A DNA stretch of 64,000 nucleotides from Polyangia bacterium (GCA_030427835.1 JAUICN010000003.1:246526-310525); one strand, 5' to 3'. Shown: positions 58,662 through 64,000, counted from the stretch's first letter. Translations and numbers: made by a program. The notes: generated by a model from the sequence alone, not told the origin.

Positions 58662-60557
58662 ATGACACCCTTTCGGCACCCGATTCCCCACAACCCCGAA
58701 CCCCGGAACCGTTTCTTGGCCCCAAGGCCTGTTTCCTCCGAAAGCACTGTGGCGGAGAGCACTGTGGCAGAGCGTACGGCTGCAGTGAGGACGGCCGCAG
58801 TGGGAGTCACCACCCTCATCGCCACACTCCTGGCCGTCGCAGCCACCCTCGTCCCCACGGCCCACACCCATGCCCAGACGGTCGTACGGGGCACACGCCT
58901 CAACCAGTATTGGGGTTCTGAAACCCTCCAGGACGGTTTCGCCGCCAGCCGACCTCTCACCCACGGTCATTTACGGCTCGGCGCACAACTCCACATGGAC
59001 TACGCCCACGACCCCCTGGTGGCGGAGCGGGAAGTGGACGGGCGGACCGAACCCTTTGGATCCATCGTGGAACACATGGCCACAGCCCAGCTGTGGCTCA
59101 ACCTTGCCCTGGCCAACCGCTTCACCCTCTTTGTGGGTCTACCCACCCACCTCTGGATGACTGGCGAAGAAGTGGTCGGAGTACCCGTTCCTGACGGAAG
59201 CCGCGTGGGCGACCCGTCCATCGGCGCTCGGGCTCACCTCTACGGCGACGAAAACGCCCCGTTCATGGTGGGTCTACAACTCGCCATGAGCCTACCCACC
59301 GCCAACTGGGTCGACGAAAACCAGGCTTACTCCGGCGAACAGGGAATTACGCTCTACCCCGAACTGCTTCTGGAGCGCAGCTTTGGGAACCTACGGATCA
59401 ACGCCAACATGGGTGCCCGACTACGAAGTGAAACCTCGGAAGTCCTACAAGTGACCGTGGGTCATGAACTCACCGGCGTATTGGGCGTAGCCTATCCACT
59501 ACTCCAGGATCAAATCACGGTGCACGGGGAAATTTTCGGTGCATTTGGCCTACAAGACGCCAGCAGCGCCGCGCAACCCATGGAAGCCCTCGGGGGTGTA
59601 AAATACCTGTGGAAGCCAGAAATCGTGGTGGGTGCGGCGGTCACCACAGGAATTCAAAGCGGCTACGGAGCCCCCGATGTTCGGGGCATCCTCACCCTTG
59701 CCTACCAGGGCCCCGAGATGGGAGATCCCCTGCATTACAGGGATACCGACGGCGACGGGATCGTGGATGCCAAGGATCAGTGCCCGCTCGTTCCGGAAGA
59801 CCTCGACAACTTCGAGGATCGGGATGGATGTCCTGAGGACGACAACGATCAGGATGGCTTGCTGGATTCGGAGGACGGCTGTCCAAACGACCCCGAAGAT
59901 CTCGACGATTTCGAGGATTCCAATGGCTGCCCCGACCCGGACAACGATCAGGACAATGTACTCGACACCCTCGATCAATGCCCTCTCGTTGCCGAAGACA
60001 GGGATGGGATTGCCGACGAAGACGGGTGCCCCGAGGAAGACGCAGATGAAGATACCGTCCTGGATCCTGAGGATCGCTGCCCTCTCACACCCGGTATCAT
60101 CAGCGAAGAACACCCGGATTGTGCGGGCTGCCCCTCAAGTGCCTGTGTGAGTGCGGGTCAAAGCGAAATCCGGATCTTTGAGCGCATCGAGTTTGAAACC
60201 AACGAGGATCGCTTGCTCTCCGCGAGCTTCCATGTGCTCAGCGACGTACTGCACATCGTTCAGAACAACAGCCATATCCGAGTGATTCGCGTGGAAGGCC
60301 ACACCGATAGCCGTGCCGACCACGACTACAACATGGATCTTTCAAAGCGGAGAGCTCTGGCCGTCAAACGGTGGCTTGTGAAACAGGGTGTGAATCCCAG
60401 TCGCCTCCAGGCCTTTGGTTGTGGGGAGATGCACCCCCTGGCGGACAATCTCACCTCCTCCGGGCGCCAGGCCAACCGCCGAGTGGTCTTCCCCATCGTG
60501 GATCCGGCCCCCACCCAAGCCCACATCTCCACCGGTTGCGTCCAGGCCAGCGAATAA
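58662..60557 (+). CDS. TraB-like protein: signal peptide, beta-barrel-like domain, thrombospondin type 3 repeats, OmpA C-terminal domain
   Basis: DxDxDG...DxCP repeats, VEGHTD, YNMDLSKRRA, NRRV; amphipathic strands in the N-terminal half. The true start may be further downstream. Confidence 0.88.
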   Translation: MTPFRHPIPHNPEPRNRFLAPRPVSSESTVAESTVAERTAAVRTAAVGVTTLIATLLAVAATLVPTAHTHAQTVVRGTRLNQYWGSETLQDGFAASRPLTHGHLRLGAQLHMDYAHDPLVAEREVDGRTEPFGSIVEHMATAQLWLNLALANRFTLFVGLPTHLWMTGEEVVGVPVPDGSRVGDPSIGARAHLYGDENAPFMVGLQLAMSLPTANWVDENQAYSGEQGITLYPELLLERSFGNLRINANMGARLRSETSEVLQVTVGHELTGVLGVAYPLLQDQITVHGEIFGAFGLQDASSAAQPMEALGGVKYLWKPEIVVGAAVTTGIQSGYGAPDVRGILTLAYQGPEMGDPLHYRDTDGDGIVDAKDQCPLVPEDLDNFEDRDGCPEDDNDQDGLLDSEDGCPNDPEDLDDFEDSNGCPDPDNDQDNVLDTLDQCPLVAEDRDGIADEDGCPEEDADEDTVLDPEDRCPLTPGIISEEHPDCAGCPSSACVSAGQSEIRIFERIEFETNEDRLLSASFHVLSDVLHIVQNNSHIRVIRVEGHTDSRADHDYNMDLSKRRALAVKRWLVKQGVNPSRLQAFGCGEMHPLADNLTSSGRQANRRVVFPIVDPAPTQAHISTGCVQASE

Positions 60558-60568
60558 CATACCCGCCA

Positions 60569-60602
60569 AACCAGCAATCCGGTCGGCTGGTTGCACTTTT
60601 TG
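60569..60602 (+). terminator. Possible hairpin between the OmpA gene and the first Cys-rich gene
   Basis: aaccagc/gctggtt inverted repeat followed by gcacttttt. Confidence 0.3.
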
Positions 60603-60625
60603 CGCCCTGCCTGCACACTTGCACC

Positions 60626-61372
60626 ATGCAGTTCGGTCAACGGTGGCGCATCCTAGCAACGGTTTCAGCGGTCGGGGGGTTCCTTACCCTACCCCTTTCA
60701 GCGTCGGCCCAGTGCATACGGACCGAGTGTGAAATCGACGGGGGGTGCATCAGCGACGGTGCAGTCAACCCAAACAACACATGCCAAGTATGCGACGTGG
60801 ACGCCAACAAAACCGCCTGGACAACCCTTGCGGATTTCACTGCCTGCGATGACGGTGATTACTGCAGCATCGGAGAGAGTTGCCGATCCGGGCGATGTGG
60901 GGGGCTGTCCCAACGACGCACTTGTAGCAGCCTGGACGTCCCATCCTGCGCCCTGGCGCTCTGCAGTTCCACAATGCAATCCTGTGTGATCCAGTTTCCC
61001 GCAACCACGGTAGCAACCCATTGTTTGATTGATAGTGTTTGCATCCCCGATGGAGCCAATGACGACATGGGCAACATCCCCTCCCCCACGCCGTGCGGCC
61101 GATACTGCGACGTGGACAAGGACAACCGAGGGTGGACTTACTTTCCGGGTGAGTGCGATGGGGGGGTCACGGATGGAGGTGCCGGTGATGGCGGTACCAC
61201 GGGTTCCGGCAACAACGTGGTCACACCCAATACCCAGGACCCTGCAGAAATTGGCGCGGGCGGCAACGGCCTTTTCTGTGCTGCAGGGCCCCAATCCCAC
61301 AGCTCCCCCGCAGGGCTCGCACTCTGGTTGCTCGGCATCACCGCCTGGATTCGCCGTCGACGACGCGGCTAG
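60626..61372 (+). CDS. Secreted Cys-rich protein with MYXO-CTERM-like sorting tail (paralog 1)
   Basis: Signal ending ASA|Q, 19 Cys in the mature part, tail GGNGLFC...LALWLLGITAWIRRRRRG. Confidence 0.85.
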   Translation: MQFGQRWRILATVSAVGGFLTLPLSASAQCIRTECEIDGGCISDGAVNPNNTCQVCDVDANKTAWTTLADFTACDDGDYCSIGESCRSGRCGGLSQRRTCSSLDVPSCALALCSSTMQSCVIQFPATTVATHCLIDSVCIPDGANDDMGNIPSPTPCGRYCDVDKDNRGWTYFPGECDGGVTDGGAGDGGTTGSGNNVVTPNTQDPAEIGAGGNGLFCAAGPQSHSSPAGLALWLLGITAWIRRRRRG

Positions 61373-61447
61373 GGATACACACGCCCATAAAAATAGCGAA
61401 AAACAGGCTCACAGGCCGGTTGAATCCTGTTTTCGAACTCCCAGACT

Positions 61448-62203
61448 ATGGCGATGCGAGTTCATCCATCTCCTATGGCCGTCACACTCCTCTGTGCCGT
61501 CGCGGTTATGCCGAGCAAGGCTTCCGCCCAATGCGAAGGAACCGACGACTGCGAAATTGATGGCCAGTGCTACGCCGACCAAACCCCCAATCCCGCAAAC
61601 TCCTGCGAACTCTGCGATTCACTTACCAGCAATACCTCCTGGACCACTCAACCGGATGGCCATGCCTGTGATGACGGCGCATTCTGCACGATCAACGATG
61701 CATGTTTTCAGGGAACGTGCAGCGTTTCGCAAAGCAATGGTTGCAGTGGCGATGGCATCATGCCGAGTTGTGCCTATCCGGTCTGCAATGAGGCAACCGA
61801 TAGCTGCGATCTCGTCCTGACCGTCACCAATCCCGCAACCCATTGCCTCATCGAACACAAATGCATCCCCAGTGGCGCAAACGATGAGGCAGGGACGGTA
61901 CCCATGCCCTCACCCTGCACCCGATACTGCGATGTGAACGCAGACCTGTACAACTGGACCTTCTTTGCAGGGACCTGTGACGCAGGGGTATCCGATGGCG
62001 GCGCCAACGACAGCGGCACAGACGGATCCGACAACAACATCCTCTACCCGAACACGCAAAACCCCACCCGCATAGACGCTGGCGGTAGCGGCCTCTTCTG
62101 CTCCATGGGCCCACAATCCCATACCTCACCCGTGAAGCTAGCTTTTTATCTGTTCGCACTTGCGACAATCACGGCCCGCCGCCGCAGACGCAAAGGCGCC
62201 TAG
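61448..62203 (+). CDS. Secreted Cys-rich protein with MYXO-CTERM-like sorting tail (paralog 2)
   Basis: Signal ending ASA|Q, same 19-Cys pattern, tail GGSGLFC...LAFYLFALATITARRRRRK. Confidence 0.87.
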   Translation: MAMRVHPSPMAVTLLCAVAVMPSKASAQCEGTDDCEIDGQCYADQTPNPANSCELCDSLTSNTSWTTQPDGHACDDGAFCTINDACFQGTCSVSQSNGCSGDGIMPSCAYPVCNEATDSCDLVLTVTNPATHCLIEHKCIPSGANDEAGTVPMPSPCTRYCDVNADLYNWTFFAGTCDAGVSDGGANDSGTDGSDNNILYPNTQNPTRIDAGGSGLFCSMGPQSHTSPVKLAFYLFALATITARRRRRKGA

Positions 62204-62238
62204 GCTACGGGCTGCGGGCTGCGGGCTGCGGGCTGCGG
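62203..62238. repeat. 7-bp tandem repeat (5 copies) between convergent genes
   Basis: ggctacg followed by ggctgcg x4. Confidence 0.9.
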
Positions 62239-62245
62239 ATCCGAA

Positions 62246-63433: not shown

Positions 63434-64000
63434 CTAGGGGGCCCTTAGAATACGAAATTCCACCCGTCGATTTAGGGATCTTCCCGCCGCTGAATCGTTG
63501 GGCGCCACTGGGGAAGCCGAACCAAAACCTTCATATTCTAGGCGTTTGGAATCCACGCCTCGATCCACCAAGTAGGCCACCACCGCCCGGGCCCGCCGGT
63601 AGGACAGATCCAGATTGTACCCCGGCTCCCCCTCGTTGTCGGTGTACCCCTCCACACGAAAATATCGATTCCCGGCCAACCCCGCAATAACATCCGCCAC
63701 CTGATCCAAAACCGGGCGACTGATCGACCGAATGGTGTCCTGATCAAACTCAAAGTAGATCCGTTCCGAAATCAGAATCCGGCTGTCCGTGACGGTCACA
63801 GTCACCCGATTGGGGCCCGGTTCGGGGCACCCGTCGTCGTCCTGATAGCCGTCCCGATCTTCCGGCTCCATGGGACAATCATCCAGAACGTCCACCACCT
63901 GGTCCTCATCGTTGTCGGGCTCTGGGCACCCGTCGCCGTCACGAAAACCATCCACATCCTCACCCACCCGCGGGCAAGGGTCGTCGATATCCGCGACACC
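63434..64000 (-). CDS. TSP3-repeat and OmpA-domain protein, C-terminal part (5' end beyond the window)
   Basis: DGCPEPDNDED..DDCP repeats, VEGYTD, YNLDLSYRRA, NRRVEF; frame open to the window edge. Confidence 0.9.
   Translation of the reverse strand, partial: GVADIDDPCPRVGEDVDGFRDGDGCPEPDNDEDQVVDVLDDCPMEPEDRDGYQDDDGCPEPGPNRVTVTVTDSRILISERIYFEFDQDTIRSISRPVLDQVADVIAGLAGNRYFRVEGYTDNEGEPGYNLDLSYRRARAVVAYLVDRGVDSKRLEYEGFGSASPVAPNDSAAGRSLNRRVEFRILRAP

Follow-up and report, generated by a model that had tools for sequence, protein, structure and literature searches.

Do three neighboring genes of an uncultured myxobacterium encode one cell-surface module related to the TraA/TraB system of Myxococcus xanthus, or do they share nothing but their location? 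The question is raised by positions 58662 to 62203 of a stretch of 64,000 nt from a Polyangia bacterium (GCA_030427835.1 JAUICN010000003.1:246526-310525). This stretch corresponds to G000:C22:246526-310525 in our genome collection and is called the window in the following; coordinates without a contig name refer to it. The source genome, G000, comprises 3.32 Mb and is 98% complete. Three co-oriented open reading frames (ORFs), P1, P2 and P3, are located here on the + strand with gaps of 68 nt and 75 nt, in agreement with a first-pass annotation made from the sequence alone, which had noticed three genes about 70 bp apart and had proposed a TraAB-like system. We regard it as fairly probable that the three genes form a cassette encoding a surface module like TraA/TraB or MXAN_5598, consisting of a wall-anchored barrel (P1) and two docked, lipid-tagged stalks (P2 and P3). 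The trio belongs to a known design and is not a new kind of system: its components are encoded separately with the barrel first, and the partner is duplicated and much shortened.

P1 combines a TraB-like barrel with TSP3 repeats and an OmpA domain

P1 (58662..60557, + strand) encodes a TraB-like outer-membrane protein of 631 amino acids (aa) when counted from the ATG. By reading, an alternative GTG start at 58785 results in a classical signal peptide (MRTAAVGV...AHTHA/Q). AlphaFold2 (AF2), run with an 82-row family alignment, models residues 72-352 (58875..59717) as a beta-barrel with a pLDDT of 94 and a pTM of 0.90; this domain includes a conserved N-terminal segment of about 33 residues that does not form a strand. 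It is followed by calcium-binding TSP3 repeats (approximately residues 355-495, 59724..60146), for which Pfam TSP_3 reports two stretches (31.9 bits, cut-off 25) and the MtsC TSP3 model of the NCBIfam scan matches residues 349-476; a repeated D.D.DG..D..D.CP pattern can be read in the same region. The OmpA-like peptidoglycan-binding domain (residues 511-606, 60192..60479) is covered by PF00691 at profile positions 2-98 of 98 (E 5.9e-19, 68.7 bits, gathering cut-off 27.2). The Pfam matches and the AF2 barrel bear out the architecture that had been annotated from the sequence, namely signal, beta-rich domain, TSP3 repeats and OmpA domain. TraB itself is described as barrel, TSP3 repeats and OmpA domain (PMC12045341), just as the first-pass annotation had stated.

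The TraB model NF033763 is the top NCBIfam match of the whole P1 protein, and when the barrel segment (72-352) was scanned alone, positions 39-277 of the same model were the sole NCBIfam match (E 9.5e-7). P1 as TraB proper was rejected, the score being 183.8 bits against a cut-off of 700. No gene above this cut-off was found in G000, in the 151 genomes of the order or in 121 genomes of the phylum. The best TraB-like gene of the order (genome G129) reaches 550 bits; from its upstream side a Cys-rich tagged ORF extends 4 nt into the gene.

Among solved structures Foldseek places FapF (5o68; E 5.6e-11, TM 0.64-0.69) and the COG4313 channel (4rl8; TM 0.71-0.74, rmsd 4.0) nearest to the P1 barrel, at 11-15% identity. 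Both have 12 strands and, unlike P1, neither a TSP3-OmpA extension nor a tagged partner. The Pfam match of P1 to Phenol_MetA_deg (PF13557), the family of COG4313, is weak (18.8 bits, below the cut-off of 22). These similarities suggest another role for P1, namely that of a channel or exporter for small hydrophobic molecules or for unfolded polypeptides, among them perhaps P2 and P3, which would then be cargo or accessory proteins. The best structural matches being the FapF amyloid-secretion channel and the COG4313 channel, together with the weak Pfam match and a conserved non-strand segment that could serve as a plug, would suit such a role. However, TM values of 0.64-0.74 at 11-15% identity indicate a shared barrel class and not a shared function. 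In addition P2 and P3 have nine predicted disulfides and a tag that uses type II secretion in M. xanthus (PMC11980579), and TraA and TraB are reported not to depend on one another for reaching the outer membrane (PMC12045341; PMC6626042). Overall we consider a channel or exporter function unlikely.

Residues 72-104 of P1 (58875-58973) are the most conserved part of the barrel family, with the consensus LDQFRPAE..DGFA.SRP...GHL. They are modelled with high confidence as non-strand and could represent a plug or a periplasmic latch.

P2 and P3 are paralogs with a Cys-rich body and a MYXO-CTERM-like tail

P2 (60626..61372, + strand) comprises 248 aa from an ATG that sits within a longer GTG-initiated ORF, and P3 (61448..62203, + strand) comprises 251 aa. 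Both correspond well to the proteins of about 250 aa with signal, Cys-rich body, Gly/Asp linker and tail that had been annotated. In P2 the signal covers residues 1-28, the Cys-rich body 29-177, the G/D linker 178-214 and the sorting tag 215-248; in P3 the respective parts are 1-27, 28-178, 179-214 and 215-251, the tag including Cys218. By reading, both signal peptides end with ...ASA/QC. The body is composed of 1.5 copies, arranged A-B-A' (61529-61981 in P3), of a Cys module of about 90 residues, so that P2, like its paralog P3, consists of the stalk module and the MYXO-CTERM tag only. The two proteins are 50% identical (BLASTP E 1e-78), and all 18 Cys of the mature part as well as the tag Cys are aligned between them. 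Since the same codon is used at only 50 of the 120 identical residues and all Cys have been kept, we infer an old duplication with both copies under constraint. Identity differs between the regions: it amounts to 60% in A', 61% in the linker and 73% in the sorting motif, but only to 33% in B (23% without the Cys).

The G/D linkers (61157-61267 in P2, 61982-62089 in P3) are predicted to be disordered and are more alike than most of the folded body. They share a stretch, NN..(Y/T)PNTQ(N/D)P, that resembles the DYLDP-type ends of TSP3-like repeats in front of the tags of large partners.

At the extreme C-terminus both proteins show the tripartite MYXO-CTERM organization of a Gly-rich motif with an invariant Cys, a transmembrane helix and an Arg-rich end, which by reading is GG(S/N)GLFC, a hydrophobic helix of about 20 residues and RRRR(R). 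The TIGR03901 model assigns P2 19.1 bits in the protein scan and 22.7 bits in the genome scan at a cut-off of 20. As the TIGR03901 scores straddle 20 bits, we rate the P2 tag as borderline to passing and the P3 tag as lying under the cut-off; of the three domains for which the first-pass annotation had suggested a profile search, OmpA and TSP3 are confirmed in P1 and MYXO-CTERM gives a mixed result in P2 and P3. The authors of TIGR03901 describe the MYXO-CTERM domain as short, divergent and needing review (bioRxiv 10.1101/2023.06.07.544157). Tails similar to those of P2 and P3 (GGALC, GGAFC or GGSFC) occur on barrel partners in relatives. Pfam detected no family in P2 or P3 at E ≤ 0.1, and no PA14-like N-terminal head at the same threshold; the mature protein begins directly with the Cys module. 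TIGR04201 repeats were likewise absent from both proteins in the NCBIfam scan at E ≤ 0.1.

AF2 models P3 with a pLDDT of 77: the first approximately 150 mature residues (28 to ~178) fold as beta-hairpins and the linker is disordered. A Foldseek search of the P3 body against the PDB gave no match at E ≤ 0.001, its best rows being the disintegrin and Cys-rich regions of ADAM10/17 and an Entamoeba lectin (TM 0.17-0.25). The VIA wide fold search, which effectively covered residues 28 to ~98 (the first ~71), yielded a best Z of 2.3. In the ESM Atlas the best clusters (0.84 and 0.80) contain small hypothetical Myxococcota proteins; being below 0.9 these values provide a lead only.

G000 encodes the machinery that such tags would require. 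A myxosortase core (NF040914) is found at C30:48906-49208 with 119.2 bits (cut-off 100), and a GspD secretin (TIGR02517) with 488.7 bits (cut-off 351). Both fit the published sorting route of MYXO-CTERM proteins, which comprises Sec export, lipidation of the Cys, cleavage by MrtX and type II secretion to the surface (PMC11980579).

The barrel family is repeatedly linked to MYXO-CTERM proteins

Members of the P1 barrel family were detected in 145 of 151 genomes from the order, 1-9 of them per genome; the unpublished genome G122 is counted here. From these we sampled the 80 best-scoring loci, which represent 47 genomes and 15 families; G000 and G122 were left out, and the family of G000 (f1) is not represented. 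Stop-to-stop frames were scored with a tail hidden Markov model (HMM) built from tails in the sampled loci and the tails of P2 and P3. Among 3,260 frames of at least 120 aa, 32 tail hits were obtained, two of which are false (the C-terminus of the barrel protein itself) and two not adjacent. In 15 of the 80 loci a co-oriented tagged ORF ends 45-175 nt upstream of the barrel domain, in 12 a tagged ORF starts at the end of the barrel gene (including locus L087, where the frame has no stop), and in one the tagged ORF is divergent. As one locus (L060) is flanked by partners at either end, the number of loci with an adjacent partner is 27. In 11 further loci partner and barrel form an in-frame fusion, in which an internal tag is directly followed by a second signal peptide and the barrel. 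Altogether, an adjacent or fused tagged partner is present in 38 of the 80 loci, in 27 of the 47 genomes and in 9 of the 15 families. Two pairs of sampled regions overlap and contain two barrel genes each (L059/L062 and L060/L069), some loci end at contig ends, and related genomes are not independent samples. As background, five sampled genomes of 3.7-11.1 Mb contain 5, 7, 25, 58 and at least 82 TIGR03901 tags, which is at most about 1% of genes.

Within G000 we counted about 10-11 MYXO-CTERM-like ORFs (by regular expression and TIGR03901). A co-oriented gene lies 16 nt downstream of the single other member of the barrel family (C23:48478-50421) and encodes a 775-aa MYXO-CTERM protein, in which a lipoprotein-type signal and a large N-terminal part are combined with Cys repeats. 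This pair closes a co-oriented run of six genes located outside the window (G000:C23:46135-55157), the first genes of which, named by reading, encode an ABC ATPase-like protein, an ABC-2 permease-like protein and a 641-aa membrane protein. Neither the 360-aa nor the 641-aa gene product of the run has an NCBIfam match.

These numbers bear on the danger of chance adjacency, which had been named when the system was first proposed. If the trio consisted of unrelated neighbors, P1 would belong to the numerous envelope proteins of TSP3-OmpA type, and P2 and P3 would be MYXO-CTERM proteins independent of it; the approximately one dozen OmpA-type matches in G000 and the 42 of 80 family members without a detected partner would be in line with this. 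Yet linked or fused loci number 38 where about 2 would be expected, at a tag frequency of at most about 1% of genes, and partner and barrel occur as natural in-frame fusions. Moreover, although G000 has only about 11 tagged genes in 3.3 Mb, both of its barrel-family members have a tagged gene directly downstream, which makes chance very unlikely. The repeated linkage of the barrel family to MYXO-CTERM surface proteins thus argues for a TraAB-like pairing.

The barrel-first order of the trio had initially been seen as a departure from the known arrangement. It is ordinary in the family, because 12 of the 27 loci that have a neighboring partner have one downstream. In a quick IQ-TREE phylogeny of 82 barrels, partner status is clustered (14 changes in contrast to 23.9 after shuffling, with 0 of 500 shuffles as low), and upstream and downstream arrangements mix within barrel clades. 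P1 stands alone on a long branch (0.86). The partners are varied adhesin-like proteins of 514-2378 aa (counted from the first start codon, some being cut by a contig end) which contain Big_13/Big_6 with NIDO and EGF_CA, DUF4215 repeats, NHL, IgGFc_binding, TSP_C or nothing known. What is unusual in the cassette is that two partners occur in tandem, consist only of the stalk repeat and do not reach half the size of any other partner seen.

The body of P2 and P3 is a short version of a common stalk repeat

The Cys module of P2 and P3 occurs in tandem in proteins of 600-1250 aa from relatives. An exhaustive HMMER search detected it in 1,139 representative proteins at E ≤ 0.001 and in 343 at 1e-10, with up to 44 matched stretches and host proteins of up to 4,285 aa; the same search returned no full-length relative of P3. 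The module has no Pfam model and shows a weak Dicty_CTDC-like CxDGxxCTxDxC motif. Large myxobacterial surface proteins with tandem Cys-rich stalk repeats share the building block of P2 and P3, but they carry 3 to 44 copies together with heads or other domains, whereas P2 and P3 carry nothing else.

The closest homolog of both, a 1235-aa protein from genome G031, has a head and TSP3-like repeats in addition to 4-5 module copies; it ends in the same tail, which can be aligned to P3 residues 179-249. Its gene adjoins a barrel gene, and it is the sole barrel partner carrying the P2/P3 module. In relation to this homolog the earlier description of P2 and P3 as headless is correct. Stalk-only tagged proteins of about 400 aa exist elsewhere, e.g. 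P0054 and P0106, so the headless state is rare and not unique, P2 and P3 being the shortest examples seen.

Their small size also permits the view that P2 and P3 are nonfunctional, decaying leftovers of a formerly large adhesin gene, given that all other partners seen are much longer (514-2378 aa) and that P2 and P3 contain only 1.5 modules. However, signal, 18 Cys, linker and tag are all intact in both copies although most of the identical residues have undergone synonymous change, and the stalk-only tagged proteins of about 400 aa demonstrate that comparable proteins occur elsewhere. We consider decay highly improbable.

Comparison with TraA/TraB and MXAN_5598

The similarity to TraA/TraB (M. 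xanthus MXAN_6895/6898) concerns both components. Like P1, TraB is made of signal, beta-barrel, TSP3 repeats and OmpA domain, and as in the trio the partner is Sec-exported, Cys-rich, MYXO-CTERM-tagged and encoded beside the barrel gene. In M. xanthus traA precedes traB with a 4-base overlap, and TraA has a PA14-like head and TIGR04201 repeats (PMC3325183); in a set of 90 orthologs traA and traB always overlap in an operon (PMC6372800). In contrast the trio places the barrel first, has a 68-nt gap instead of a 4-nt overlap and encodes two partners, and P1 stays at 183.8 bits against the 700-bit cut-off for TraB. P2 and P3 differ from TraA in having neither the PA14-like variable head nor TIGR04201 repeats, their mature parts comprising about 190 residues as compared to about 650. 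Of the proposal of a TraAB-like system there remains that the P1 barrel matches the TraB model only and belongs to a family with recurrent MYXO-CTERM linkage; an identity with TraA and TraB does not hold. In the literature seen, mostly titles and abstracts, we found no report of a general pairing of MYXO-CTERM proteins with TraB- or OmpA-type proteins.

Given this parallel architecture, one may ask whether the trio is a true system for kin recognition and outer-membrane exchange, with P2 and P3 as two homotypic receptors whose specificity would reside in the Cys-rich scaffold, all the more as module B is the most diverged part between the two paralogs. Against it speaks the missing variable head, the part of TraA that sets specificity (PMC6372800, PMC12045341), as does the score of P1 against the TraB model (184 bits, cut-off 700). 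Furthermore, the partners of the barrel family are mixed adhesin-like proteins (Big_13/Big_6/NIDO/EGF, DUF4215, NHL, TSP_C), which argues for a general anchor role rather than exchange. We regard an exchange system as quite unlikely. A related idea is a minimal recognition system in which the wall-anchored barrel would present two lipid-anchored stalks of about 190 residues and module B would act as a homotypic or ligand-binding surface. The only hint of specificity borne by the scaffold is the divergence of module B in the P2/P3 alignment, and the scaffold is a common stalk repeat with 1,139 protein matches; this idea, too, we judge to be rather improbable.

The second known system with both components is MXAN_5598, a fused precursor mentioned in a paper on the MYXO-CTERM pathway (PMC11980579, Discussion). 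Fusions of this type combine an adhesin, an internal MYXO-CTERM, a barrel and an OmpA domain, and 11 of the 80 relatives of the P1 barrel are built in this way. Unlike MXAN_5598, the trio consists of separate genes with the barrel gene first and a tiny surface part. The frame upstream of P1 contains no internal MYXO-CTERM tag.

Two other long frames were noticed. In L087:4309-10863 (G036:C2) no stop codon separates a barrel-TSP3-OmpA frame from a lipoprotein signal, which is followed by a head domain, long Cys-rich repeats and a MYXO-CTERM; the whole frame comprises 2185 aa with 187 Cys and represents a fusion in the opposite order to MXAN_5598, a lost stop or a sequencing error. G000:C15:105627-109199 (L118:628-4200) is an open frame of 1190 aa that contains a MYXO-CTERM internally (26.1 bits), and after this tag a second lipoprotein-type signal peptide and about 480 residues without a Pfam match follow in frame; it contains no barrel and is a case of two tagged proteins or lipoproteins made as one frame.

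A proposed mechanism for the cassette

In the reading that we prefer, the three genes form one cassette for a wall-anchored barrel with two docked stalks. P1 would be exported by Sec and its barrel, of about 12 strands, inserted in the outer membrane, the periplasmic TSP3 repeats and the OmpA domain tying it to the peptidoglycan. P2 and P3 would also leave the cytoplasm by Sec and would fold in the periplasm with nine disulfides; kept in the inner membrane by their C-terminal helix, they would be lipidated on Cys218, cut by myxosortase and carried by type II secretion to the cell surface, where they would be lipid-anchored. Each of them would then probably dock with module A' and the linker on the outer face of P1, as modelled for TraA on TraB. 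Such docking would couple a short, rigid disulfide stalk to the cell wall, and the diverged distal module B would be the face directed toward a ligand or another cell, possibly in adhesion. In our analysis, display of P2 and P3 on the surface with docking on P1 by their conserved proximal part is the most likely arrangement.

The cassette is supported by the pattern of conservation between P2 and P3, as A', linker and tag are the best conserved parts (60-73%) and B is the least conserved (33%). Published work on TraA and TraB reports that they occur 1:1 in foci (PMC12045341; PMC6626042), and an AlphaFold model sets the membrane-proximal Cys-rich end of TraA on the TraB barrel (PMC12045341). 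A complex prediction of the P1 barrel with P3 residues 28-218 resulted in a score of 0.00 in two control-free runs, which is evidence neither way. The absence of a terminator signal between the genes supports a single transcript. Among public sequencing runs no RNA run was listed for this stretch; it occurs in two DNA runs, which may be its source. The first-pass annotation had considered that transcription might stop at a hairpin at 60569-60602. Neither the site scan nor the shuffle-controlled fold identifies it as a terminator: the fold of 60555-60630, which covers the hairpin, is no better than that of shuffled sequences (z +0.37).

Several observations weigh against this interpretation. 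TIGR03901 on P3 remains below the cut-off of 20 with 13.0 bits in the protein scan and 17.4 in the genome scan. The tail detector was home-made and seeded from the same loci to which it was applied, only the partners in L044 and L095 being flagged independently by TIGR03901, and the tail in L106 has no Cys in its last 42 residues. As mentioned above, 42 of the 80 loci have no detected MYXO partner. The nearest solved folds of the P1 barrel are channels and not docking platforms. A barrel gene is located beside only 1 of 11 module-bearing loci, thus the Cys module as such is not tied to barrels. Finally, none of the collections searched yielded an ortholog of the trio, so that conservation cannot be claimed for this exact linkage. 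The word-index protein search with P3 returned only a fragment of P3 itself, and the related-locus search with P3 gave 2 spurious short matches in genome contigs and none in metagenome contigs. The corresponding search with P1 gave 15 distant metagenome loci (28-47% identity, lineage unknown), and none of the 11 scanned contains a MYXO tail. With regard to linkage in relatives, the expectation is consequently confirmed for the barrel family, which is repeatedly linked to MYXO-CTERM proteins, but not for the trio itself.

Spacers and neighboring genes

The P1-P2 spacer (60558..60625, + strand) has 68 nt and no detected terminator. The P2-P3 spacer (61373..61447, + strand) has 75 nt and a weak hairpin (z -0.90) that is equalled by 35 of 200 shuffled sequences. 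Between 58300 and 62500 no terminator-like site was called, and the number of sigma-70-like promoter sites was 0 in a scan blind to other promoter types. Named by reading only, the upstream neighbors on the - strand are a methylmalonyl-CoA-mutase-like gene and a TPR gene, and the downstream neighbor, also on the - strand, is an acyl-CoA dehydrogenase-like gene. A GGGCTGC sequence, repeated in tandem in about 4-5 copies (62206-62240), lies between the stop of P3 and that of the dehydrogenase gene, which is convergent with it; the hairpin of the repeat (-22.7 kcal/mol, z -1.9) may act as a two-way terminator.

A second TSP3-OmpA gene, encoding 568 aa on the - strand, extends from the window (63434-64000) to G000:C22:311665. 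It is convergent to the trio, with only the acyl-CoA dehydrogenase-like gene in between. Its N-terminal part was missed by phmmer with the P1 barrel and matches positions 67-374 of the TraB model with 56 bits. In two more regions of G000 an OmpA-type protein is encoded near a MYXO-CTERM protein: in G000:C18:145899-150153 the gene for an 862-aa OmpA protein is convergent with that for a 486-aa tagged protein with a partial match to the MXAN_2677/2678 metalloprotease family, and in G000:C6:22594-28651 the genes encode a tagged protein of 651 aa, a Ser/Thr kinase and a TraB-like protein of 490 aa.

Implications

TraA/TraB is the best understood bacterial device for kin recognition, and the role of TraB in it is still argued from models. 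If the trio were a minimal recognition system, it would mean TraA-type kin or partner recognition without a head domain in a myxobacterium with a 3.3-Mb genome. The Cys-rich stalk module, for which there is no Pfam model and no solved fold was found in the searches described above, deserves a family description. The trio is also a handy object for mapping the contact between partner and barrel, because with about 190 mature residues per partner it is the smallest version seen. TraB-like proteins with barrel, TSP3 repeats and OmpA domain are present in nearly all sampled genomes of one myxobacterial order, and about half of the barrel-family members sampled are connected with a MYXO-CTERM surface protein, be it through the upstream gene, the downstream gene or an in-frame fusion. 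This suggests a general rule by which lipid-tagged surface proteins are often given a cell-wall-anchored barrel partner of their own.

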